Below are positions 20,623 to 63,279 of a stretch of 64,000 nt of DNA, piece by piece; the stretch's first letter is position 1; each line of letters opens with the position of its first letter. Made by a program: the position numbers and the translations under genes. The DNA is from Alphaproteobacteria bacterium UBA3760. Its GTDB lineage: Bacteria; Pseudomonadota; Alphaproteobacteria; Rs-D84. The notes beneath the pieces were generated by a model. The model worked only from the letters and a program-made list of their open reading frames with translations, was not told the origin of the DNA and ran no database searches. Location of the stretch: assembly GCA_002371155.1 (NCBI GenBank), contig DFGC01000010.1, positions 740 through 64,739 of the forward strand, given 5' to 3'.

Positions 20623-23600
20623 ATGGCAGTTATCCAGAAATTTAGAAAATCTTTTGGCAAAAGTTTTTTGCAAACTCCACTTCCCGATTTGGTTGAAATT
20701 CAATACAACTCTTACAAAGATTTTTTGCAGGCCGATGTTGCCCCACAAAATCGTGAAAACAAAGGGTTGCAGGCCGTTTTCACATCTATGTTTCCGATTA
20801 AAGATTATGCCGGAATCGCGGATTTGGAATTTGTTGAATATACACTGGAAAAACCCGTATATAACGTCAAAGAATGTATGTTGCGCAATTTGACATATTC
20901 GCGCAGATTAAAGGTCAAATTAAGACTTATCTTGTGGGATGTCGCCGAAGATGGCAAAAAAACATTGCGTGATATCAAAGACCAAGAAATATTCATGGGT
21001 GATGTTCCGTTAATGACCGAACGTGGCAGTTTTATTGCCGCCGGTGTGGAACGCGTTATCGTTTCCCAAATGCATCGTGCCCAAGGTGTCGTTTTTGCAA
21101 CAACCAAAGAGGCCAAAATTGCTGGCAATCCAACAACATATACGGCGCGTATTATTCCCGAACATGGGTCATGGATTGATTTCGAAGAATCCAAAGGCGT
21201 GATTTATGTTCGTATCGACCGTCGTCGCAAAATTCCGGCAACGGTTTTGTTGCGTTGCTTGCCCTGTGCCGAAGATGAAAAGAAATGGGCGGCTGACCCG
21301 CGCAAGGCAAATGTTCGCGGAATGTCTGATACGGAAATTTTGTCGGCATTTTATAAATCAATTCCATTGTCATTTGATGGCAAGGTTTGGGTTGGCGACA
21401 CATCTGTATTCGACGGATTGGATAAATACCGTTTGAATTACGATTTGTTGTCGGTCAAAGGCGACAAAGAATTGGCAAACAAAGGCGACAGATTGTCTGC
21501 AAAACGTTTGTCGAAATTGATGTCATCTGCAAAACAATTTGGTATTAAACCTGAATCATTGGTTGGTGAATTTTTGTTCGAACCAATTACATCTGCGGGC
21601 GAAGTTGTATATCCATCTGGAACCGAAATCACCGAAGAAATTTTGTCTGATTTGGATAAAATGGGTGTTAAAAAGATTTCGATTATCGCGATTGATAACA
21701 CAACAATCACCGCGCATATGCGTAATACATTGGCGGCGGACAAAATCACAAATCGCGATGATGCATTGATTGAAATTTATAATGTTATCAGACCAGGTGA
21801 ACGTCCCACGGTCGAGGCTGCATTGGGATTATTCCTGCGCCAAGGATTCGACGCGGCATATTATGATTTATCGGCGGTTGGTCGTTTCAAGATGAACAAA
21901 CGTTTGAAAATCGATTCTGGTAAACGCCCCGAAGATGAACGTTTATTGACCAAGGCTGATTTCTTGGCGGTATTGAAAACATTAACAAATATTATTGACC
22001 ACAAAGATACAATTGATGATATCGATAATTTGTCGAACCGTCGTGTTCGCGCGGTTGGCGAATTGTTGGAACAAACTTTCCGCACGGGGATGTTGCGTAT
22101 TGAACGTCTGGTTCGCGAAAGTTTGTCTTCGCCGAATATCGCAAATATGCAACCCCAAGATGTTATCAATGTTAAACCTTTGATGTCATTGGTTTCTGAA
22201 TTTTTGGGAACATCACAATTATCTCAGTTTATGGATGCGTATAATCCATTGTCTGAATTGGAACACAAACGTCGTATTTCTGCATTGGGGCCTGGCGGGT
22301 TAAATCGTGAACGCGCGGGTATCGATGTCCGCGACGTGCATCCAACACACTATGGTCGTTTATGCCCAATTCACACCCCCGAAGGTGCCAACATCGGTTT
22401 GATAAACCATTTGGCATCATATGCGCGTGTGAACAAATACGGATTTATCACAACCCCATATTACGAGGTTAAAAACGGCAAAGTCACCGATAAAATCGTG
22501 TATTTGACGGCTGATGAAGAAATGGGACACAAAATCGCCCAGGGTAATACACCAACTAATAAAGATGGTAAATTGACTGGCGATGTCGTGACTGCGCGTG
22601 TTGATGGCGAATTTACGATGGTTCCAACCGAAGAAATTGATTTAATTGACGTTGAACCGCGTCAGGTGGTGTCCATTGCAACCGGATTGATTCCGTTCGT
22701 TGAAAACGACGACGCGAACCGTGCGTTGATGGGTTCGAACATGCAACGCCAAGGCGTTCCATTATTGCGGGTCCAGGCCCCATTGGTCGGAACCGGTATC
22801 GAACGCGAGGTTGCACGTGATTCCCGCACCGGCAAGGTTGCAAAACACAGTGGTGTTGTGGAATCTGTGGATGCAAACCGTATCGTGGTTAAATGTATGA
22901 ATTCACGCAATGTTGTGACCGGTGTTGATATTTACAACTTGGAAAAATTCGAACGTTCCAACAGTGAGACATTGATTCATCAAAAACCGTTGGTCAAGGT
23001 TGGCGACCGCGTATCGGCGGGCGATGTTATTGCCGATGGTTCGTCAATGAATTATGGTGAATTGGCATTGGGTCGCAATGTGTTGGTTGCATTCGTGCCA
23101 TGGCGTGGTTATAACTATGAAGACGCGATTGTGATTTCCGAACGCATTTCACGTGAAGACGCATTCACATCTGTCAAAATCGTTGAAAAAGAATTCAAGG
23201 TTCGTGATACCCAATTGGGCCCAGAAAGTTTCACTCGCGACATTCCAAATGTCAGTGAAGAGGCGGTTAAAAACCTGGACGAATCTGGTATCATCTATGT
23301 TGGTGCGCGTGTAAAGCAGGGCGATATTTTGGTCGGTCGTGTTTCCCCAAAATCGGAAACATTATTGACCCCCGAAGAGGCACTGCTGCGCAACATCTTT
23401 GGTGAAAAGGCATTAAATGTCAAAGATACATCTTTGCGCGTTGGTCCAAATGAAGAAGGAACCGTTATCGGTGTCAATGTTTTAACCCGTCATGGTGTTA
23501 AAAAAGACGAACGCACACAAATGATTGAATTGGAAAAAATCGCCAAAATCAACAAAGACAGAAACGAAGAAATCGCAATCATCGAAAAAGGTTTTGCTGA

Positions 23601-24759
23601 TCAAATTTTCCAATTGGCGGAAAACGAAACAATCGAAGATGGCACAGGTTCGTTAAAACCATTTATTGGTAAAAAATTGACTGCCGAGGTTTTCGACGGT
23701 ATTCGTGCGACCGATGTTAAAAAATTGGTTGTTAAAAATCCCGAAGTCCAGGCGAAAATTGCTGAATTGTGCGAACAACACATCATCAAATTGAACCAAT
23801 TAAATGAAAAAGCCGATGCCGAGGTTGCCAAGGTGACCGAAAGCAATTCTTTGAGTGCGGGCGTCTTGAAAGAGGTCAAGGTTTATATCGCGCACAAAAT
23901 GAAATTGCAACCGGGTGATAAAATGGCGGGTCGTCACGGAAACAAAGGTATCGTGTCCAAGGTTGTTCCAATCGAAGATATGCCATACATGGAAGATGGA
24001 ACCCCGGTCGATATTGTGTTGAATCCGTTGGGTGTGCCGTCCCGTATGAATATTGGTCAGATTTTGGAAACTCACTTGGGAATGGCGGCGCGCACATTGG
24101 GTCAACAAATTGGCGCGGTTCTGGACGAGGTCAAACAAAAACGTGCTGTGACCGACGATTTGCGCAATATTATGGGCAAAATCTATGGCAAAGAAGTGGC
24201 GGAAAAATTGGAAAAGATGACCGACACTGATGTCCGTGCCGAGGCCGCATTATTGCGTGATGGTGTGCCAATGGCAACGCCAACATTCGACGGTGCAAAC
24301 CCAGACGATATTAAATCGATGTTGAAATTGGCAAAGTTGCCTGAAACGGGACAATTCACATTGTATGACGGTATGACGGGTGAAAAATTTGCACGTCCGG
24401 TGACCGTTGGTGTTATGTACATGTTGAAATTGCATCACTTTGTGGATGAAAAGATTCACGCGCGTTCCGTGGGCAGTTATTCACTTGTCACACAACAGCC
24501 ATTGTCTGGTAAGGCCCACATGGGTGGCCAGAGATTAGGTGAAATGGAGGTCTGGGCGTTAGAGGCCCACGGTGCCGCACATCTGTTGCGCGAAATGTTG
24601 ACGGTTAAATCCGACGATATTACCGGCCGTAACAAGATGTACGAAGCCATCATTTCTGGCAGTAACGATATCCAAACCGGCACACCCGAAGCGTTCAATG
24701 TATTTGTTCGCGAATTGCGTGGTTTGGGATTGGCAATGACACCGAAAAAAATAGACTAA
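20623..24759 (+). CDS. rpoB: DNA-directed RNA polymerase beta subunit
   Basis: 1378 aa with conserved beta-subunit blocks throughout (e.g. [32 protein letters not shown]). Confidence 0.99.
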
Positions 24760-24767
24760 TTGTTGGG

Positions 24768-24803
24768 GTGCGAACGGGCGCGTCGCTTTCGCCCGGGGCG
24801 CAC
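24768..24803 (+). other. GC-rich hairpin in the rpoB-rpoC spacer
   Basis: GTGCG-AA-CGGGCG ... CGCCCG-GGG-CGCAC two-part stem, which stands out in an AT-rich genome. It may be a processing or pausing structure. Confidence 0.35.
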
Positions 24804-24843
24804 ACCAATGGCAACTTTAAAGCGACTTAAAGGAGCAAAATAA

Positions 24844-27800
24844 ATGACAAATATGTTGCAAAAGATATTTGGACAAATCGAAACCAAAGAACAGTTTGAT
24901 GCGTTGCGTATCACAATCGCCAGCCCAGAAGAAATTCTGTCTTGGTCCCATGGCGAGGTTAAAAAACCTGAAACAATCAACTATCATTCTTTGAAACCAG
25001 AACCCGAAGGATTGTTTTGCCAGGAAATTTTTGGCCCGGTCAAAGATTTCGAATGTGCATGCGGAAAATATAAACGCATTAAAAATCGTGGTGTCATTTG
25101 CGAAAAATGCCATGTCGAGGTTGGACCATCATCTGTTCGTCGTGAACGCATGGGGCACATCAAATTGGCGATGCCGGTTGCACACACTTGGTTTTTACGC
25201 GAAGGCAAAATTGCTGTTTTGTTGAACAATTTGCCACAAAAGAAATTGGAACAGGTTATTTCATACGACGCATATATCGTTATTGAACCGGGTTTAACCA
25301 ACCTGAAATTATACGATGTTATCAGTGAAGATGAATACCAGGCCAAGGTCGAAGAATTTGGCGCGGACGCGTTCCGTGTTGGCATCGGTGCCGAAGGTGT
25401 GCGCAGCATTATCGCAAATTTGGATATGGGCGATGAACGCACTCGTCTGCGCGCAGAATTGGCGGAAACAAAATCTGAACAAAAACGCAAATTATTGATT
25501 AAACAATTAAAATTGGTTGAATCGTTCTTGGATTCTAAAACAGAACCTGCATGGATGTTGCCGGATGTTTTGCCGGTTATTCCACCAGATATGCGCCCAT
25601 TGGTCACATTGGATGCGGGACATGTCGCGGCATCTGATTTGAACGATTTGTATCGTCGCGTAATTATTCGTAATAATCGTTTGAAAAGATTTATGGAAAT
25701 GCATGCCCCAGACATCATTATTCGTAATGAAAAACGCATGTTGCAAGAGGCGGTCGATTCTTTGTTCGATAATGGACACAAAGCGCGCCCAATGGTTTCC
25801 CAAAACCGTCGTCCATTGAAGTCTTTGTCTGATTCATTGCGTGGTAAATCTGGACGTTTCCGTATGAATATGTTGGGTAAACGTGTGGATTATTCGGGGC
25901 GTTCGGTTATTACACCGGGACCAACACTGCGCATGCACCAGGTTGGATTGCCAAAAACAATGGCATTGGAATTGTTCAAACCATTTGTATTTGCGAAACT
26001 GTTGGCGGGTGGTTATGCAAACACATTGAAAACCGCACGCAAAATGGTTGAAAATGGCGAAGACATTGTTTGGGAAATTTTGGAAAAGGTTATTTATCAA
26101 CATCCTGTGTTGTTAAACCGTGCGCCATCGTTGCACAGATTGTCATTGATTGCGTTCGAACCTGTTTTAATCGAAGGCAAGGCAATCCGTTTGCACCCAT
26201 TGGTCTGTAAAGGATTCAATGCGGACTTTGACGGTGACCAGATGTCTGTGCACGTGCCAATTTCATTAGAGGCACAGTTAGAGGCACGCACATTGATGTT
26301 ATCAACAAACAACGTTATGTCCCCCGCCAGTGGCGACCCAATGACTGTGCCGTCCCAAGACATGGTGTTGGGGGTGTATTACATATCGCTGATGAATGGC
26401 GAACATGACGAAAAGAAATCACCACGCTTTTCCGGCATGGACGAGGTTAAATTGGCATTGGAAAATAAACTTATCACTTTGCACACACCAATTTATGCGC
26501 GTGTAAATGGTAAAACATATGCCACAACCGCGGGTCGTATGATTTTGGGCGAATTGTTGCCAAAATCTGACAATATGCCGTTTGATTTGGTGAACAAGGT
26601 TATGCCGGCCAAAGAAATCAAAAAATTGTTGGCAACAACATATGAACGTTGCGGGGACAAGGCAATGATTTTATTGGCGGACGCATTGAAAGATACCGGT
26701 TTTGAACAGGCTGCACGCAGTGGTATTTCAATTGGATTTAACGATATTGTTATTCCAGAAGAAAAGAAAGAAATGATTGCCGAATCAACCAAGGCAGCCG
26801 AAGAAATCGAAGAACAATATCAAAACGGTTTGTTATCCGGTGGTGAACGTCACAATAAATTGATTGACCTGTGGCAAAAAACAACCGATAAATTGGGTGA
26901 TTTGGCATACGCCACATTGGGTAAAACAACGGGCGACAATTGGAATTCTGTATATATGATGGCTTTGTCCGGTGCGCGTGGTTCCAAAGGTCAGATTCAA
27001 CAGTTGGCGGGTATGCGTGGTATGATGCAGAAACCAGACGGTTCAATTATCGAAGTTCCAATTATTTCGAACTTCAAAGAAGGTTTGACCATGTCTGAAT
27101 ACTTTACATCCACCCACGGTGCGCGCAAAGGTATGTCGGATACGGCATTGAAAACCGCATCGGCTGGATATTTGACTCGTCGTTTGGTTGAATTGGCACA
27201 AAATACAGTTATCACCGAACACGATTGTGGCACACACGAATTTATCACGGCAAAACCTGTGTACCAAGGTTCAACATTGGTTGTGCCATTGGGCGATGTG
27301 GTTTTAGGCCGTACCGCGGCACACGATATCGTCAATCCAATGACCAAAGAGGTCATCGTGCCGGCTGGCGAATTGGTGACAAAATCCGCGGCCAAGGCGA
27401 TAAACGAATGTGGTTTGCCATCGGTTGATGTGCGCAGTGTCTTGACATGTCAAAGTGATGGTTTGTGTGCGAAATGTTATGGTATGGATTTGTCGCGAAA
27501 TGCGCTGGTGCATGTTGGTGAACCGGTTGGTGTTATCGCGGGTCAATCTATTGGTGAACCAGGAACCCAGTTGACATTGCGGACCTTCCACATTGGTGGT
27601 ATTGCGGAAAGTAGTGCGGAAAGCCACTTTATCGAAATGCCGGTTGCGGGTAAAATCAAATTGATTGGCGTAAATACCATTAAAAACAAGGCTGGCCGTG
27701 TTGTTGTGTTGTCGCGCAATGGCGAAATTGCGGTTGTTGATGACAAAGATAACAAATTGTTCAGTTGTGCATTGCCATACGCATCAAAAATGATTGTATC

Positions 27801-28956
27801 TGATGGCGACATGGTGGACAAGGGTGCCAAGGTTGCTGAATGGGATCCGTATTCCAACGATATTATCGCGGAAAAAGACGGCACGGTATGCTTTAACGAT
27901 TTGATTGAAAATGTGTCTTTCCAAGAAGAGGTTGACCCGACAACTGGAATCATCTCGCGCAAGGTCACAAATTGGAAAAACGTAACCAAAAAGCCGTTAA
28001 ATCCATCTATTACATTGGTCGATGCCAATGGCGAGGTTATTTCGTTGGGCGGCAAAAAAATTGCCGAATATATGGTTCCAATGTATTCCGTATTGACTGT
28101 TGCCAACGGGGACAAGGTTTCTGCGGGTGATATTTTGGCGCGTATCCCTGTCCAGGCGAAAAAGACGGGCGATATTACCGGTGGTTTGCCACGCGTCGAA
28201 GAATTGTTAGAGGTTCGCCGTCCTGCAAATCCGGCTTTGTTGGCGGAAATTGACGGAACAATCGAATTAGAGGATGCGAAATCTAAAATCATTATTCGCA
28301 TTGAACCGACCGACGGAACGGCGCCTGTGGAATATGCCGTGCCCAAGGGAACAAATTTATTGGTTCGCAGTGGCGATGTCGTGAAAAAGGCTGAAAAATT
28401 GGTTGACGGTGAACCCGTGCCCCAGGATATTTTGCGTATTTTGGGACAAAAGGCATTGGCGACATTTATGGTCGAACAAGTGCAACAGGTTTATCGTTTA
28501 CAGGGTGTGACCATCAACGACAAACACATCGAAATTTTGATTCGTGAAATGACGCGTCGTGTTGAAATCGCAAACCCAGGCGATACTGGATTCTTGATGG
28601 GTTCGGTTGTTGACCGTGTTGATTTCGAAGAAGAAAATGCGCGTGTGATACGCGATGGTGGTCGCCCAGCCGAAGCGTCCCAGGTTTTGGTTGGTTTGAC
28701 GCGTGCGTCTTTGACATCGCGTTCGTTCATATCCAACGCATCGTTCCAACAAACAACCAAGGTTTTGGTGGACGCGGCAATCAATGGTTCAACCGACAAA
28801 TTGGTTGGTATCAACGAAAATTTGATTGTTGGTCGTCTGATTCCAATTGGCACCGGTGCATATGTTCGTCGTGTGCGTGAAATCGCCAAGGAAGAAGAAC
28901 GCGCTGAAAAAATTGCCCGCGAAGGTGGCGAACACCAACAATTGTTGGATATTTAA
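24844..28956 (+). CDS. rpoC: DNA-directed RNA polymerase beta' subunit
   Basis: 1370 aa with a zinc-binding N-terminus (CACGKYKRIKNRGVICEKC), the NADFDGD catalytic motif, and conserved trigger loop and bridge helix regions. Confidence 0.99.
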   Translation: MTNMLQKIFGQIETKEQFDALRITIASPEEILSWSHGEVKKPETINYHSLKPEPEGLFCQEIFGPVKDFECACGKYKRIKNRGVICEKCHVEVGPSSVRRERMGHIKLAMPVAHTWFLREGKIAVLLNNLPQKKLEQVISYDAYIVIEPGLTNLKLYDVISEDEYQAKVEEFGADAFRVGIGAEGVRSIIANLDMGDERTRLRAELAETKSEQKRKLLIKQLKLVESFLDSKTEPAWMLPDVLPVIPPDMRPLVTLDAGHVAASDLNDLYRRVIIRNNRLKRFMEMHAPDIIIRNEKRMLQEAVDSLFDNGHKARPMVSQNRRPLKSLSDSLRGKSGRFRMNMLGKRVDYSGRSVITPGPTLRMHQVGLPKTMALELFKPFVFAKLLAGGYANTLKTARKMVENGEDIVWEILEKVIYQHPVLLNRAPSLHRLSLIAFEPVLIEGKAIRLHPLVCKGFNADFDGDQMSVHVPISLEAQLEARTLMLSTNNVMSPASGDPMTVPSQDMVLGVYYISLMNGEHDEKKSPRFSGMDEVKLALENKLITLHTPIYARVNGKTYATTAGRMILGELLPKSDNMPFDLVNKVMPAKEIKKLLATTYERCGDKAMILLADALKDTGFEQAARSGISIGFNDIVIPEEKKEMIAESTKAAEEIEEQYQNGLLSGGERHNKLIDLWQKTTDKLGDLAYATLGKTTGDNWNSVYMMALSGARGSKGQIQQLAGMRGMMQKPDGSIIEVPIISNFKEGLTMSEYFTSTHGARKGMSDTALKTASAGYLTRRLVELAQNTVITEHDCGTHEFITAKPVYQGSTLVVPLGDVVLGRTAAHDIVNPMTKEVIVPAGELVTKSAAKAINECGLPSVDVRSVLTCQSDGLCAKCYGMDLSRNALVHVGEPVGVIAGQSIGEPGTQLTLRTFHIGGIAESSAESHFIEMPVAGKIKLIGVNTIKNKAGRVVVLSRNGEIAVVDDKDNKLFSCALPYASKMIVSDGDMVDKGAKVAEWDPYSNDIIAEKDGTVCFNDLIENVSFQEEVDPTTGIISRKVTNWKNVTKKPLNPSITLVDANGEVISLGGKKIAEYMVPMYSVLTVANGDKVSAGDILARIPVQAKKTGDITGGLPRVEELLEVRRPANPALLAEIDGTIELEDAKSKIIIRIEPTDGTAPVEYAVPKGTNLLVRSGDVVKKAEKLVDGEPVPQDILRILGQKALATFMVEQVQQVYRLQGVTINDKHIEILIREMTRRVEIANPGDTGFLMGSVVDRVDFEEENARVIRDGGRPAEASQVLVGLTRASLTSRSFISNASFQQTTKVLVDAAINGSTDKLVGINENLIVGRLIPIGTGAYVRRVREIAKEEERAEKIAREGGEHQQLLDI

Positions 28957-45542: not shown

Positions 45543-46466
45543 ATGAAAGTCGCAATTATTGGTTTGGGTTCGGTTGGTTCGGCGGTTGCAACCGCAATTA
45601 AAAATACAGGCCTGGTTCACGAAATGGTTTTGTTTGACCGCGATGCGGTCCGTAGTCAAGCGGCCGCGGCGGATTTGGGGCATGCGGCGGCTTTTTCGTT
45701 TGATGTAAAAATAACGGCTGCAAATTCGTATCGTGAAATCCGTGGTTCTGAAATAGTGGTGATTGCCGCCGGCGCGAATCAAAAACCGGGACAAACACGC
45801 ACAGATTTATTGTCGGCAAATGCAAATGTCATTCGCGATATTATCCCACGCGTCATGGCAAATACAGACCCCAAAACGATTAAAATAATTATCGTCACCA
45901 ATCCGTTGGATGTTATGGTGATGTTGGCGCGTGATTTGTCCGGCCTGCCATCCGCGCGGGTTATTGGAACGGGGACAATGTTGGATTCGGCGCGCCTGCG
46001 CACGATATTGGCACGTGCATTGGATGTGTCCCCAATGTCGATAAATGCGTATGTTTTGGGTGAACATGGCGATTCGTCGGTTGTGAATTGGGAATCGGCA
46101 TGTGTTGGTGCGATTCCATTAAATGATTTTTGTCGCACGACAAAAATACCTTTATCCCAAACAACGCGTCGCACGATTGAATATCGGGTTCACAACGCAG
46201 CCTATGAGATTATAAACGGTCGTGGTGCAACATGGGACGGTATTGGTGCCGCGGTAAATGATTTGTTGCGTTGCATAATAAACGATGAAAAAAGAATTTT
46301 AACTGTATCAACATGCGCGCCCAAAACAAACCTGGCGATGTCGATGCCAACGATTGTTGGTGCCGCCGGTGCAGTGCGTGTTTTGACACCACACCTGGCC
46401 CCCACAGAAAGCAAGGCTTTACATGCCAGTTCGCGCATCATCAAAAAAAATTACAACAATATTTAA
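45543..46466 (+). CDS. ldh: L-lactate dehydrogenase-type 2-hydroxyacid dehydrogenase
   Basis: Rossmann motif KVAIIGLGSVGSA, substrate Arg in LDSARLR, and catalytic His in LGEHGDS. The GEHGDS pattern points to LDH rather than MDH. Confidence 0.8.
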   Translation: MKVAIIGLGSVGSAVATAIKNTGLVHEMVLFDRDAVRSQAAAADLGHAAAFSFDVKITAANSYREIRGSEIVVIAAGANQKPGQTRTDLLSANANVIRDIIPRVMANTDPKTIKIIIVTNPLDVMVMLARDLSGLPSARVIGTGTMLDSARLRTILARALDVSPMSINAYVLGEHGDSSVVNWESACVGAIPLNDFCRTTKIPLSQTTRRTIEYRVHNAAYEIINGRGATWDGIGAAVNDLLRCIINDEKRILTVSTCAPKTNLAMSMPTIVGAAGAVRVLTPHLAPTESKALHASSRIIKKNYNNI

Positions 46467-49466: not shown

Positions 49467-49494
49467 TTGATAAATTGGCAAAATGTGCTATAAT
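49467..49494 (+). promoter_or_regulatory. Near-consensus sigma-70 promoter giving an apparently leaderless transcript
   Basis: TTGATA, 16 nt (ending TGC), TATAAT. The -10 element ends only 7 nt before the ATG at 49502, and no Shine-Dalgarno sequence is present. Confidence 0.55.
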
Positions 49495-49501
49495 TTAGCA
49501 T

Positions 49502-50494
49502 ATGTCGATATATAAACGAATTTTGCCTTGTTTTATTGCGCTATCCTGTATTCATAACGCGTATGCTGATGATACGGGTATGGCTTTGGCAGATTTGTAT
49601 TCTGTATATGAAACAACTTCTCAATTTTGTGATGGAATATCCGACCGGATATCGGCTGTGTCTGGGATATCAAAAATAAATACCGGGATAACGGCAACGG
49701 GAACTGTGGCGGCGGGTGGTGCATTATATGCCGGTATAAAAAAATCTGAAACCGATCAAGAAATCGCCGAATTGGCAAAGCAATTATGTGCCGATGGCGG
49801 TTGCGACCCAGACAAAGTCGAGGCGATGTCTGATCAAGAATTTTTCGATAAAATATTACCAACATTGATCGAAATGATATCGCGTTCCGAGTCAAATGCC
49901 GCTGAAAAAATGGCACAAAAATCTGAACTGGATGCCATGGTTGCAAAATCGAAACGGCTGGGAAATTGGCGCACAGGTTTATTGGCGGGAACGGTCGGCA
50001 CAAATGTTGCGTCGGCAATAATATCGGGATTAAATAAAAACCAATCTGATTTGATACAACAAATTTCTGCGTGCAATGTGGCGGTGGCACGATTGCGCGA
50101 ATATTATAATGCGGCATTGCAAAATGGTGTAAATCCAATTGAAAATCCGGTTATGCAAACATTCCAGACGACTATAACAAATTGTGGAACATTACAAATA
50201 TCTGATGTTGAAAAAATAGAAAAACGTATGACGGCGGTTTTTGGAACATCGATTGCGGGCGCGACGATTGGTGCGGTCGGGACCGGGACATCGATTGTGG
50301 CGAATACTGATAAAATTCGCAACGATAATTCTGATGCCGGTAAACAAACAGAAAAAACATTAAACACAATTTCAAATGTTGCGGCAGGAACAAATATCGC
50401 CACTGGAATCGTTGGAACAGGATTAAATATATCATTGATAACATTGACGCGCGATTTAATGCGCACTGCACAAAATTGCGAGGATACATTATGA
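49502..50494 (+). CDS. Secreted protein with glycine-zipper-like segments
   Basis: Signal peptide MSIYKRILPCFIALSCIHNAYA. Repeated G/A/T small-residue stretches (GTVAAGGALYAG, GTSIAGATIGAVGTGTS, AAGTNIATGIVGTG) and scattered Cys. No family recognised. Confidence 0.65.
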   Translation: MSIYKRILPCFIALSCIHNAYADDTGMALADLYSVYETTSQFCDGISDRISAVSGISKINTGITATGTVAAGGALYAGIKKSETDQEIAELAKQLCADGGCDPDKVEAMSDQEFFDKILPTLIEMISRSESNAAEKMAQKSELDAMVAKSKRLGNWRTGLLAGTVGTNVASAIISGLNKNQSDLIQQISACNVAVARLREYYNAALQNGVNPIENPVMQTFQTTITNCGTLQISDVEKIEKRMTAVFGTSIAGATIGAVGTGTSIVANTDKIRNDNSDAGKQTEKTLNTISNVAAGTNIATGIVGTGLNISLITLTRDLMRTAQNCEDTL

Positions 50495-59691: not shown

Positions 59692-60003
59692 TTATTCAAA
59701 CCAAATTTCAACACGATCGTCCCCAGATATCGTCCCGGACGATGTTTTAACGGGAATTGTCACCTCGCTTTTTGATACGGTCACGGTTCCGTTATTCGCA
59801 GTGACCCCGGTCACAATCGCCCCCGTCCCAGATTCAACAACATTTGTTGATGTCAATTTGTCTTGTTTTGTTGCGTCCATATGGTTGTATGCACCATCAA
59901 CATATGATGCCGCCGCAACCACAGACGATTTGTCCACTTCGCCCGCGGCAAACGCCGGGATGACCAAGAATATTGCAACAAAAACACAAAGCAACTCTCT
60001 CAT
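59692..60003 (-). CDS. Small secreted fibre-like protein
   Basis: Signal peptide MRELLCVFVAIFLVIPAFA, then ASYVDGAYNHMDATKQDKL and T/V/G/S-rich beta-like repeats. Confidence 0.6.
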   Translation of the reverse strand: MRELLCVFVAIFLVIPAFAAGEVDKSSVVAAASYVDGAYNHMDATKQDKLTSTNVVESGTGAIVTGVTANNGTVTVSKSEVTIPVKTSSGTISGDDRVEIWFE

Positions 60004-60091
60004 ATCGTATAAAAAAATCTGGAAATTTTATCGAACATCATTATACACGATATTGATAAAATTGTCCAGATTAAAAATTAATATTTTATTA

Positions 60092-61141
60092 TTAGTTTGC
60101 CTTGTATGTGACCGTTCCTGCCGAAATCGTGGCTGTTTTGTCTGATGTATTGCCGGTCAATCCGGTAACGGCCTGGGTTTGTGTCAAATCAACATTGGCC
60201 AAAATCTTGTCTGTTGCCGGTGTATCAGACCCCCATGTGTCCATAACGGTAATCTTGGCATTTGCCGTGCCGGTAACCGCACCCGTTTGAACCCCCAATC
60301 CGCTAAGGTCATATGTCACCGTTGCACCATTTACCGCCGCCGCAGCAGTTGCCGCCGCGCCTGTCGTTGTTGCATAGTTGCCAGACAAACCGTCGATTGC
60401 CGTTCTAACCGCTTTTTCGGTCACCAATTTATTTTCACTCGCGTTGGCAGCGTCTGCGGCAATTGAATTAACAACTGTGCCGGTCTTGAAATTGTCGGTC
60501 TCTAAATTACTGATGGTTGTGGAATCTGCATCGATTGTGCCACCGGTAATCGTTGCACCCGAAACCGTCCCACCAGAAATCGCTGCATTTTGAACCGTGC
60601 CACCGGAAATATTTTTGTTTGTCAATGTCTGTGTCCCGGTTTCTGTGACCATGCCATTGATTGCGGTTGCGACGGCTTTCTCGGTCACCAATTTTTCATC
60701 AGATGCAGTGGTATCGGTTTTGATACCCGCCGATGTTGCCAATGCGGCACTGTTGAAATTATCTGTTTCCAAATTGGTAATAGAATTTCCCGTGCCATTC
60801 GCATCAATTGTTTTGTTGGTCAATGTTGCCTTGCCATCTGCGGTCAATGCCCCAGATGCGGTTTCCGAAACTTTATTGATTGCACGGATTGCCGCGTTAT
60901 ATGCACCCTTGACATATCCAGCCGTTGCGACATTGCCGTCATTTTGACCCTCGAGTGCCAACGCATATTTTGGACCATCACCCGCAGTGACGTTATCCGC
61001 CGTCTGGACAGCCGCCTGTTCCACTGGGACCTTGGTAATATTGGTTGGCGCGCCGGGGACAATCTCGCCCACGGCCGCATTTGCCGCCATCGGTAAAATC
61101 GCCAAAGCCGCAATAACCGAAATATTCAAAAATTTTTTCAT
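60092..61141 (-). CDS. Secreted repeat-containing fibre/adhesin-like protein
   Basis: Start ATG 61141 has GGAGAG upstream (the track start at 61156 is TTG). Signal peptide present. TAGYVKGAYNAAI, and two internal modules each with TLTNK..., (I/S)(T/S)NLETDNF and (E/N)KLVTEKAV.TAI.G. Confidence 0.7.
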   Translation of the reverse strand: MKKFLNISVIAALAILPMAANAAVGEIVPGAPTNITKVPVEQAAVQTADNVTAGDGPKYALALEGQNDGNVATAGYVKGAYNAAIRAINKVSETASGALTADGKATLTNKTIDANGTGNSITNLETDNFNSAALATSAGIKTDTTASDEKLVTEKAVATAINGMVTETGTQTLTNKNISGGTVQNAAISGGTVSGATITGGTIDADSTTISNLETDNFKTGTVVNSIAADAANASENKLVTEKAVRTAIDGLSGNYATTTGAAATAAAAVNGATVTYDLSGLGVQTGAVTGTANAKITVMDTWGSDTPATDKILANVDLTQTQAVTGLTGNTSDKTATISAGTVTYKAN

Positions 61142-61158
61142 TCTCGTTCTCTCCAATC

Positions 61159-61198
61159 GTTTGTTTGTTTGTTTGTTTGTTTGTTTGTTTGTTTGTTT
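61159..61198. repeat. Tetranucleotide microsatellite (GTTT)10, i.e. (AAAC)10 on the coding strand of the downstream gene
   Basis: Ten perfect tandem units counted in the sequence. They end 18 nt upstream of the ATG at 61141, immediately 5' of its RBS. Confidence 0.98.
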
Positions 61199-61275
61199 GA
61201 CCGTTTTTATTTAACTACATTATATCACAAAACGGGTTCTAAAAAAAACGATATAATGCATAAATTTTTACTTTT

Positions 61276-61746
61276 TTATGGTTTCAAGAATCCTGAATCC
61301 CAACTGTCTTCAACTTCGACGGCTTGCCACGAACCAACACCGTTTGCATCGGTTTTGAAAACATATGTTGCGTTGTTTTCGGTTTCACCCAAATTCAGCC
61401 CGACAACATTTTTTCCGTCTTGTGTTTTGGTTATTTCGATACCTGTCCCATCAGTGTATTCCTGAGCATTGTTAATGTTAGTTATCGCGGTTTTCAATTC
61501 ACTAATTGCACCGGTGACGGTTTCTGCCTTTGTCCCCATTGCGGTATCGCCAACCTTGTCGGATATTGCTTTGGCATCATCCTTGGCGGATTTATACACA
61601 TATTGCAAACCTTCATCTACATACCCCTTGGTCGTCAATGCCGCCGCCGTTGCATCCGGTTGACTAACGGGGTCATCTGCGTATGCTGCGCCGACCGAAA
61701 CCGCTGATATTGATGCCATCAAAGTCCATAAAACGCTTTTCTTCAT
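61276..61746 (-). CDS. Secreted fibre-like protein
   Basis: Signal peptide, TKGYVDEGLQYVYKS, YTDGTGIEITKTQDGKNVVGLNL, and a C-terminal SWDSGFLKP. Confidence 0.65.
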   Translation of the reverse strand: MKKSVLWTLMASISAVSVGAAYADDPVSQPDATAAALTTKGYVDEGLQYVYKSAKDDAKAISDKVGDTAMGTKAETVTGAISELKTAITNINNAQEYTDGTGIEITKTQDGKNVVGLNLGETENNATYVFKTDANGVGSWQAVEVEDSWDSGFLKP

Positions 61747-61782
61747 CTATTTCTCCTCCATTTTTTTGTTCATTTAATTTTT

Positions 61783-62406
61783 TTATTGTAATAAAAATCC
61801 TGGGTCAAAATTATGCACGACATTTGCGCCGGGAATTTGACTGATTTTTTGGTTCAGATTATCGATTTCTTGATTTATTTCGTCAATTTCGTTTGGCAAA
61901 GTCATGATTTCATCAGTCAAACTAATTGTTTTGCCGTCAAAAACGATACCGTCCCCAGATTCTAAATTTTCTTGTTTTGTAGATATTTCCGTTTCTAAAT
62001 CCGTAACGCGTTGCGCCAAATCCAATGTGGCGGGACTGTCAATCACGGGTTGTTGTTGCTGTTGTTGCTGTTGCGCAGAACTTGTTGATAACTTGGAACT
62101 CAATCCCTTGATAACACTATTATGCAGGGCGGACAACCGCATCGAATTATTGTTGTTGACCGGTTTTTCTGCAACACTTATCGAATTGTTTGTGTTTGTC
62201 GGTGTGCTTGACAATCCAAACGCACGCACAGACGATGCGCGCGGACTCGCCGGTAATTTGGTCAGGCTTGTTTTGTTGATATTATTTTGGGTGTTATTGG
62301 TTGTGTTGATGCCAAATTTTTTTACTGTTGGCGCTGCGAACACCTGGGATGCCGACATACCCAAAATAACCGACACAAACATCAAAAACATCGCGCTTTG
62401 ACGCAA
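61783..62406 (-). CDS. Secreted coiled-coil/fibre-like protein with poly-Gln tract
   Basis: TTG start at 62406 is preceded by AAGGAG at 6 nt. Signal peptide, N/T/S-rich region, Q8, heptad-like LDLAQRVTDLETEISTKQENL, GDGIVFDGKTISL, and a C-terminal NFDPGFLLQ. Confidence 0.6.
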   Translation of the reverse strand: MRQSAMFLMFVSVILGMSASQVFAAPTVKKFGINTTNNTQNNINKTSLTKLPASPRASSVRAFGLSSTPTNTNNSISVAEKPVNNNNSMRLSALHNSVIKGLSSKLSTSSAQQQQQQQQPVIDSPATLDLAQRVTDLETEISTKQENLESGDGIVFDGKTISLTDEIMTLPNEIDEINQEIDNLNQKISQIPGANVVHNFDPGFLLQ

Positions 62407-62557: not shown

Positions 62558-62589
62558 GATTTTCGTCATATGGTTATAGGGAGATGTTT

Positions 62590-63279
62590 ATGAAAAAAAT
62601 TCTTTTGTTCTTGTGTATGGTTTTTATTACAAATACCGCCAATGCCCGGGTTGAATATTACGCGTCGGCAAAATTTGGGTTGGGGGACACAACAATATAT
62701 TTGGATGGCGATACCAATTTGGGTGATTGGTTGGTCCAAGAATCTGAACATAATACCGGACTCGATGGATTTAATTATGATGCGTCGGGATTGTTATTTG
62801 AAATATCTCCGGCGGTTGGCATTGATTGGAGCATGAATAATACATACGGCACAAAAAGCAAATATGGTTGGTTTCATCTGCGGTTAGAGGGCGAAATCGG
62901 ATACAATCATTATAATGAGAAAGGAGACCTAAAATATTTTTATGCGGTTACCGATAAAACAAAAATCAGTTTTAATCAAATGTTTATATTGACGAACGGA
63001 TATATGGATTTTCATATTGATAACATTATTCCGTATGTTGGTGCGGGAATTGGATATGGTTTTGGCAACCAAGATGTGACATTGGAAAATGAATTTGGCG
63101 AATTCAATGATTCTGGGTCAGATGACGGAATAATTTATGCATTGCATTTGGGTATGGCATATAAATATTCCGATATAACAACATTCGATTTAGGATTCCG
63201 TCGCGTTTGGGCACCAACCACGGACGACGGCAAATATGTTTTTGATTCTGTGCGTTTTGGGGCGCGGTTCCGGATATAA
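62590..63279 (+). CDS. Small outer-membrane beta-barrel protein (OmpA-beta-barrel/opacity-like)
   Basis: Start ATG 62590 lies 6 nt after AGGGAG. Signal peptide MKKILLFLCMVFITNTANA, about 8 amphipathic strands, and a terminal VRFGARFRI. Confidence 0.65.
   Translation: MKKILLFLCMVFITNTANARVEYYASAKFGLGDTTIYLDGDTNLGDWLVQESEHNTGLDGFNYDASGLLFEISPAVGIDWSMNNTYGTKSKYGWFHLRLEGEIGYNHYNEKGDLKYFYAVTDKTKISFNQMFILTNGYMDFHIDNIIPYVGAGIGYGFGNQDVTLENEFGEFNDSGSDDGIIYALHLGMAYKYSDITTFDLGFRRVWAPTTDDGKYVFDSVRFGARFRI

Follow-up and report, generated by a model that had tools for sequence, protein, structure and literature searches.

A strain-variable AAAC repeat upstream of the ribosome-binding site of a fibre-like secreted protein gene in rumen Alphaproteobacteria

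A perfect tetranucleotide microsatellite, C(AAAC)10, stands between a conserved promoter-like element and the ribosome-binding site of a gene for a fibre-like secreted protein in Alphaproteobacteria bacterium UBA3760. It was examined within a window of 64,000 nt (the whole stretch of DNA that was analysed, from contig DFGC01000010.1) and in related contigs. Judged from sequence comparison, the tract is a genuine and fast-evolving repeat of what should be an mRNA leader, and it would constitute a further case of a known type (exemplified by the AGAT repeat of uspA2 and the heptamer repeat of hmw) that is unlikely to surprise a specialist. We hypothesize that this slippage-prone (AAAC)n leader tunes expression of the downstream gene in a graded manner, which is the best of the explanations considered and is offered tentatively, as one that falls just short of probable.

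On the gene strand (minus) the repeat runs from 61199 to 61159, equivalent on the plus strand to (GTTT)10 at 61159-61198 plus one G. TRF reports a single array at 61159-61199 (period 4, 10.2 copies, 100% matches), and a regex scan of the whole window for mono- to octanucleotide repeats returned nothing comparable at any period, the runner-up among tetranucleotide repeats being TTGG x3; the claim of the preliminary description that the window holds no other perfect microsatellite of such size is thus borne out. Across ~295 kb of related and unrelated loci, tetranucleotide repeats of at least four units are likewise confined to this locus. With 10 units spanning 40 bp, the tract is a perfect repeat of the slip-capable kind expected of simple sequence repeat (SSR) contingency loci. 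Read along the minus strand, the order of elements is an extended -10 box TGATATAAT (61227-61219), GTAGTTAAATAAAAACGGT, C(AAAC)10, GATT, the Shine-Dalgarno (SD) sequence GGAGAG (61149-61154), AACGAGA and the ATG at 61141, such that the tract ends 4 nt before the SD and 18 nt before the A of the ATG, with the SD itself 7 nt before the start codon. Re-reading of the sequence confirmed every coordinate of the preliminary description, including those of the tract, the 18-nt gap, the SD and the complement of the -10 box at 61219-61227.

The gene downstream of the tract (60092-61141, minus strand) encodes a 349-aa orphan secreted protein. Its longest open reading frame begins at a TTG at 61156, which we rejected in favour of the ATG at 61141 because the latter has the SD 7 nt upstream and because M1 and K2 are invariant in 45 homologues. 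A further upstream ORF through the tract and the plus-strand ORFs across it were set aside as spurious, as they lack an SD and have a repeat-driven composition. The protein starts with MKKFLNISVIAALAILPMAANA/AVGE, and its classical Sec signal peptide, MKKFLNISVIAALAILPMAANA/A, is invariant in the same 45 homologues. It contains two copies of a ~55-aa module (TLTNKTIDA..ISNLETDNF..KLVTEKAV..I(D/N)G) that aligns at 60% identity (E = 5e-13) with a segment of 363-aa proteins from metagenome-assembled genomes (MAGs) of Bacteroidales and Alphaproteobacteria, of which a Bacteroidales example (L002) matches the PHROG annotations tail protein, minor tail protein and tail collar fibre protein. Given these phage tail-type modules and the signal peptide, the label of a fibre-like secreted protein is reasonable. 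The preliminary description had spoken of a surface fibre gene; secretion and the tail-type modules uphold it in part, whereas the 349-aa protein and its neighbours have no match in Pfam, PHROGs or NCBIfam, and a PDB profile search with the 349-aa protein found no relative. The AlphaFold model is poor (pLDDT 62.5, pTM 0.26), and a Foldseek search with it returned no match. Compared with close alleles the gene has a dN/dS of 0.3-0.6, a range that reads as fast for a bacterial gene but gives no evidence of positive selection.

The window has a G+C content of 42%, and two long, adjacent and co-oriented ORFs at 20623-28956 (1378 aa and 1370 aa) are, to judge by their size and position side by side, candidates for rpoB and rpoC. 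The closest genome is a rumen MAG, 'uncultured proteobacterium RUG585' (L001), which has the same gene order and an orthologue 54% identical to the fibre-like protein; among the more distant homologues are MAG proteins entered as 'hypothetical protein [Alphaproteobacteria bacterium]'. Assemblies from the rumen of cows and sheep supplied the close relatives (PRJEB21624, a cow rumen project; labels STEW18, STEW19 and SHIW14), and the locus is absent from viral contigs. Data sets in which it occurs are SRR873606, SRR5322946, SRR29040548, SRR22585849, ERR2027923, the SHIW14 samples SAMN02144230 and SAMN02144231, and JGI 3300002641. The implication of the preliminary description that the organism is host-adapted is only a loose fit: the organism is an uncultured rumen alphaproteobacterium and not a pathogen.

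The fibre-like gene is the third of four co-oriented small signal-peptide genes (62406-61783, 61746-61276, 61141-60092 and 60003-59692), and this Sec-signal cluster (window 59692-62406, minus strand) is conserved in RUG585 (L001 4512-7326). None of the four proteins belongs to a known family; in three (156, 349 and 103 aa) a GYV/SYV motif recurs near the N-terminus (TKGYVDEGL, TAGYVKGAYN and ASYVDGAYN). The first cluster protein has 207 aa, a signal peptide and a coiled-coil-like region, and its gene (61783-62406, minus strand) carries a run of nine glutamine codons (a CAA/CAG trinucleotide repeat) at 62049-62073; its orthologues measure 188 to 241 aa among strains, so that this protein varies in length as well. 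In RUG585 the cluster adjoins the genes of two repeat proteins that are very large and rich in cysteine (919 and 837 aa), a module of which is resembled by a 309-aa ORF of the window (58705-59634, plus strand). Predicted outer-membrane beta-barrel-like proteins with C-terminal aromatic ends (..RF, ..QF, ..RI) are encoded at 54376-56571 and 62584-63279 (plus strand), with sub-threshold Pfam matches only (Autotransporter, OmpA_like). Their position on either side of the fibre cluster gives the region the look of an island of envelope or surface proteins.

Twenty related contigs, cow and sheep rumen metagenomes among their sources, were gathered by three routes: a scan of metagenome contigs for the SD-start sequence, searches for exact copies of the 156-aa product of the upstream neighbour (61276-61746, minus strand, used as bait for the allele series) and of its homologues, and look-ups with two homologues of the fibre protein. 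For the fibre protein of the window itself, whether read from the ATG or from the TTG, no exact copy is on record. Ten units are present in the window, in L033 and in L031 and L032, which form a 2-SNP sub-haplotype (flank identity 99.3-100%); nine in L027 and L048, which have two upstream SNPs in common (99.4-100%); two in L028 (96-98%); three in L036, L037 and L038 (88-94%) and in L041 (79-91%); six in L040 and L042 (86-95%); and eleven in L045, L046 and L047 (86-93%). In three Logan contigs (L029, L030 and L039; 88-100% identity, upstream flank only) the sequence stops after 7.5 units. Among the outgroups, L043/44 (63% identity) has three units behind a degenerate AAC-rich stretch, and RUG585 has the degenerate GGAACAAACAACAAGCAAACGAAGGAG only. 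Unit number thus takes the values 2, 3, 6, 9, 10, 11 and at least 8 next to the same promoter box and a near-identical SD and start, the combination of a variable repeat with conserved flanks that is looked for in SSR contingency loci. The preliminary description had named an invariant unit number among strains as the outcome that would speak against a switch; the number is not invariant, running from 2 to 11. The tract appears, from the alleles and outgroups, to have expanded from a short seed within an ancestrally A/C-rich leader.

The three Logan contigs, from independent assemblies, all break exactly 30 nt inside the tract, which is the one point in favour of an assembly or sequencing artefact. 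These assemblies were presumably built with k = 31, and a break after 30 nt of repeat fits a loop in a k=31 graph, so that the alleles concerned should have roughly 8 units or more. Moreover, at least nine complete contigs, drawn from ENA, JGI and further assemblies, carry the tract between unique flanking sequences, and the recurrence of the same tract and flanks in independently assembled public contigs argues that it is not an assembly artefact, the chance of which we regard as negligible. Short-k assemblies are broken by long AAAC alleles, and unit numbers of ~8 and above are systematically lost from such data.

In a neighbour-joining tree of the upstream flank, almost each haplotype lineage has its own unit number, and 9 and 10 units are separated at dS = 0.011 in the gene comparison, which makes the tract by far the fastest-changing feature of the locus. 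Contigs of the same haplotype, some of which are probably re-assemblies of identical reads, always agree in unit number (four with 10, two with 9, three with 11 and three with 3), a pattern that gives no sign of extremely high switching. The slippage rate typical of Haemophilus tracts is 1e-4 per generation. On a back-of-envelope calculation, slippage at this rate would leave lineages at dS 0.01 fully randomised; if it is assumed, the near-equal lengths of 10, 10 and 9 would point to a much lower rate here or to stabilising selection on length.

Upstream of the tract, a ten-allele alignment reveals three conserved elements. The first is the -10 box, whose T-TGAT-TAATG core is invariant across the ten alleles; its second hexamer position is conserved in 90% of them, the sole exception being RUG585 (A to G, TGATGTAAT), which keeps the core although its flanks are only 58% identical to those of the window. 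Throughout the species-level clade the -10 core GTTTTGTGATATAATG is identical. The second element is a T-rich stretch, a T8 run in the window, at the place expected of a -35 (61241-61248, minus strand). The third is a box, ATGCATTATATCG (61249-61261, minus strand), the first 11 nt of which, ATGCATTATAT, are invariant. Exact TGnTATAAT occurs at seven sites in the window, and five of the seven are located 7-78 nt upstream of the starts of co-oriented long ORFs: sites 45503, 49486, 55464, 62429 and 61219 precede ORF starts at 45543, 49502, 55498, 62406 (the first gene of the fibre cluster) and 61141, respectively. The leaders behind these five sites are A-rich or A/C-rich. Since the same type of box precedes other ORFs of the window, TGATATAAT represents the organism's usual promoter type, and the extended -10 that the preliminary description had placed just upstream of the tract is supported both by its conserved core and by these other occurrences. 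At one of the five sites, a perfect TGCTATAAT (49486-49502, plus strand) ends 7 nt before the ATG of a 330-aa ORF at 49502, a placement that suggests leaderless mRNA in this organism.

A conserved -10 of a type found upstream of other genes makes it almost certain that the AAAC tract belongs to a transcribed leader, in agreement with its earlier placement in the 5' UTR or just past the transcription start. We infer from the -10 a transcription start ~7 nt past it, near 61212, which would give a 71-nt leader with the tract at about +14 to +54. There is no terminator-like site between the upstream neighbour and the fibre-like gene, so read-through transcripts would carry the tract too; whether from its own promoter or by read-through, the repeat would be transcribed and end 4 nt before the SD.

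Placement of the tract bears directly on the idea of a true ON/OFF phase switch like those of classical contingency loci, in whose favour one may cite that 40 bp is within the range of high-rate switching in Haemophilus (De Bolle 2000, as quoted in PMC7302503), and that the downstream product is secreted and fast-evolving. The tract, however, is outside the ORF, with start codon, SD and signal peptide all downstream of it, and a 4-nt step in the leader produces no frameshift. It is also outside the -35/-10 spacer, for it begins 20 nt downstream of the -10 and does not share the promoter-spacer position of the SSR switches of opc, porA, hif and sabA. Promoter, SD and ORF are intact in all alleles from 2 to 11 units. 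With the tract outside both the reading frame and the -35/-10 spacer, an ON/OFF switch is very improbable, and the phase switch suggested in the preliminary description is left with no obvious mechanism.

The T run at 61241-61248 does occupy a promoter-spacer position and is nearer to the classical promoter-spacer switches than the AAAC tract. It measures T8 in the window, L048, L028 and L042, T7 in L040, L045, L036 and L037, and T6 in L038 and L041; L038 otherwise shares the haplotype of L036 and L037. The spacing from the invariant box to the -10 is accordingly 22, 21 or 20 nt with T8, T7 and T6, and 21 nt in the outgroups. The box and the -10 region (61217-61226) also form a 10-nt inverted repeat (GCATTATATC ... 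GATATAATGT) with arms 21-22 nt apart, which is retained in RUG585 and L043 with changes that stay G-U compatible. On the plus strand the box reads cGATATAATgcat, a perfect -10 whose antisense direction leads into the 3' end of the gene for the 156-aa protein. The box may serve as an activator site, operator or UP site, as an RNA hairpin arm, or as an antisense promoter.

An effect at the level of DNA, in which unit number alters transcription through the distance from the promoter to a downstream protein site or through promoter-proximal DNA properties, draws on these elements: the invariant ATGCATTATAT and its inverted repeat with the -10 suggest a regulator at the promoter, the T6-T8 run is a second small variable repeat in the promoter itself, and the nadA TAAA(n) and sabA poly-T rheostats are precedents (PMC2791445, PMC4081817). 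We consider such an effect improbable, as conservation past the tract points to no candidate operator apart from the SD region, and the tract starts at about +14, past the region that normally affects promoter escape.

The leader shows little sign of structure. The predicted fold of a 191-nt leader region is no more stable than that of shuffled sequence (z = +0.93), no known RNA family matched even at E <= 1, and models with 2, 6 and 10 units leave 98-99% of the tract unpaired. The modelled energy of opening the stretch from the SD to +13 is flat within ~0.1-0.2 kcal/mol from 3 to 20 units, both from the predicted transcription start and in a read-through transcript, and occlusion of the ribosome-binding site dependent on unit number was rejected because this energy is flat for 3 or more units. 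A hairpin of the hmw kind, processed by RNase III, was rejected as well: the repeats do not form the arm of a long stable hairpin, there is no complementary G/U-rich arm, and the unpaired tract and unstructured leader exclude a mechanism of that type. A predicted SD/AUG hairpin is present in the window, L042 and L043 and absent from L045 (11 units), L040, L036 and L028; as it is not conserved among alleles, the rationale of a ribosome standby site (an unstructured tail combined with an SD/AUG hairpin) is not general.

What unit number could still influence is the length of the leader. In our proposed scheme, (AAAC)n would have grown from an ancestral A/C-rich and unstructured leader, as outgroups with 2-3 units or a degenerate AAC-rich stretch suggest, with slippage as the presumed cause of variation in unit number. 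Gain or loss of units would alter only the length of the single-stranded A/C-rich stretch before the ribosome-binding site, leaving reading frame and promoter spacing untouched, so that a graded change in expression is likelier than ON/OFF switching. Such a change might arise through loading of the 30S subunit or of S1 on the unstructured leader, or through mRNA stability. Engineered CA-repeat 5' tails in E. coli raise translation in a length-dependent manner, with a maximum at 16-18 nt (PMC5934652); by that measure alleles with 2-3 units would differ from those with 6 or more, and alleles with 9, 10 and 11 units hardly at all. A longer single-stranded A/C-rich leader may, by analogy, act on translation independently of structure, and an effect of unit number at the mRNA level, as for uspA2 AGAT(n), is a further possible option. 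Any effect on expression probably saturates after about 4-5 units. The most specific form of this proposal, in which (AAAC)n is a structure-free, length-tunable translational enhancer or ribosome-loading platform, and hence a heritable and reversible rheostat for a secreted protein with phage tail-fibre modules, we regard as rather unlikely.

A neutral origin of the variation is quite possible, nearly as much so as graded tuning: in an A/C-rich leader tolerant of any length, a 3-unit seed would have crossed the slippage threshold to become a hypermutable microsatellite, its length drifting with no effect on expression. The modelled accessibility of the ribosome-binding site is independent of unit number, the leader has no conserved structure, a seed existed (as the outgroups attest), and the identical numbers in identical haplotypes fit a moderate rather than a very high mutation rate. 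Against neutrality, bacterial genomes normally purge long pure repeats unless they are maintained, and this tract is the sole tetranucleotide repeat of at least four units in the ~360 kb examined, window included; it retains at least six perfectly pure units in 6 of the 10 distinct haplotype lineages of the species-level clade; and at 4 nt from the SD it lies within the region contacted by the 30S subunit. A precedent for minimal effect is nonetheless available in Moraxella, where an upstream GTTC tract has anywhere between 6 and 27 units and yet makes a difference of no more than 1.2-1.4-fold in mRNA (PMC7302503), indicating that hypervariable tetranucleotide tracts upstream of a gene can be almost silent.

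To our knowledge, no genetics of any kind exists for the uncultured rumen Alphaproteobacteria. Were unit number to tune expression, the locus would offer a clean natural case of a leader repeat whose action needs no RNA structure and would bring repeat-based bet-hedging to these uncultured bacteria; selection could then come from predators, phage or protozoan, that target a fibre-like surface protein. If (AAAC)n is the enhancer or loading platform that we regard as rather unlikely, the AAAC tract and the T6-T8 promoter run would together make up a two-repeat control region, and the evolution of contingency loci would extend to a non-pathogenic rumen lineage by a post-transcriptional, hairpin-free mechanism. 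The allele series itself, with 2 to 11 units and otherwise conserved control elements, amounts to ready-made constructs for an expression test. Should unit number have no effect, the locus would show with good resolution how a microsatellite is born in an A/C-rich leader and then drifts, and would still be of practical use as a strain marker and as a place where k=31 assemblies are known to break.

By analogy with characterised systems, the AAAC locus is most like the leader repeats of uspA2, AGAT(n), and of hmw, a heptamer, minus the hmw hairpin. In Moraxella catarrhalis, uspA2 mRNA changes ~3-fold in a graded manner with the number of AGAT units (Attia and Hansen 2006, as cited in PMC7302503). 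Both loci place a tetranucleotide repeat of strain-variable unit number upstream of the start codon of a gene for a surface or secreted fibre-type protein; they differ in the unit (AGAT there, AAAC here), in the distance to the start (~132 bp in uspA2, 18 nt here), in the range of unit number (~6-23 against 2-11) and in the host, here an uncultured rumen alphaproteobacterium whose protein is unrelated to trimeric autotransporters. The ATCTTTC(n) repeat of hmw1A and hmw2A in Haemophilus influenzae is transcribed in the 5' UTR and grades expression with repeat number; its repeats base-pair with a G-rich arm, and the long hairpin so formed is cut by RNase III (PMC12721329). The likeness lies in a repeat within the 5' UTR of an adhesin-type gene, transcribed there and presumably so here, whereas a 7-nt unit with a hairpin is replaced in our locus by a 4-nt unit in a tract predicted to be unpaired. 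The TAAA(n) tract of nadA in Neisseria meningitidis and the poly-T tract of sabA in Helicobacter pylori likewise grade adhesin expression (PMC2791445, PMC4081817) and resemble our tract as A/T-rich simple repeats close to the promoter of an adhesin gene; those tracts, however, are upstream of or beside the -35 and act via protein binding or DNA geometry, while the AAAC tract is downstream of the -10, so that the closer analogue here is the T6-T8 run. Finally, CA-rich 5' tails share with the AAAC leader a single-stranded A/C-rich sequence directly 5' of the ribosome-binding site, but they are engineered and peak at 16-18 nt, whereas natural AAAC alleles extend up to 44 nt and the hairpin that gives a standby site its use is not conserved among them.
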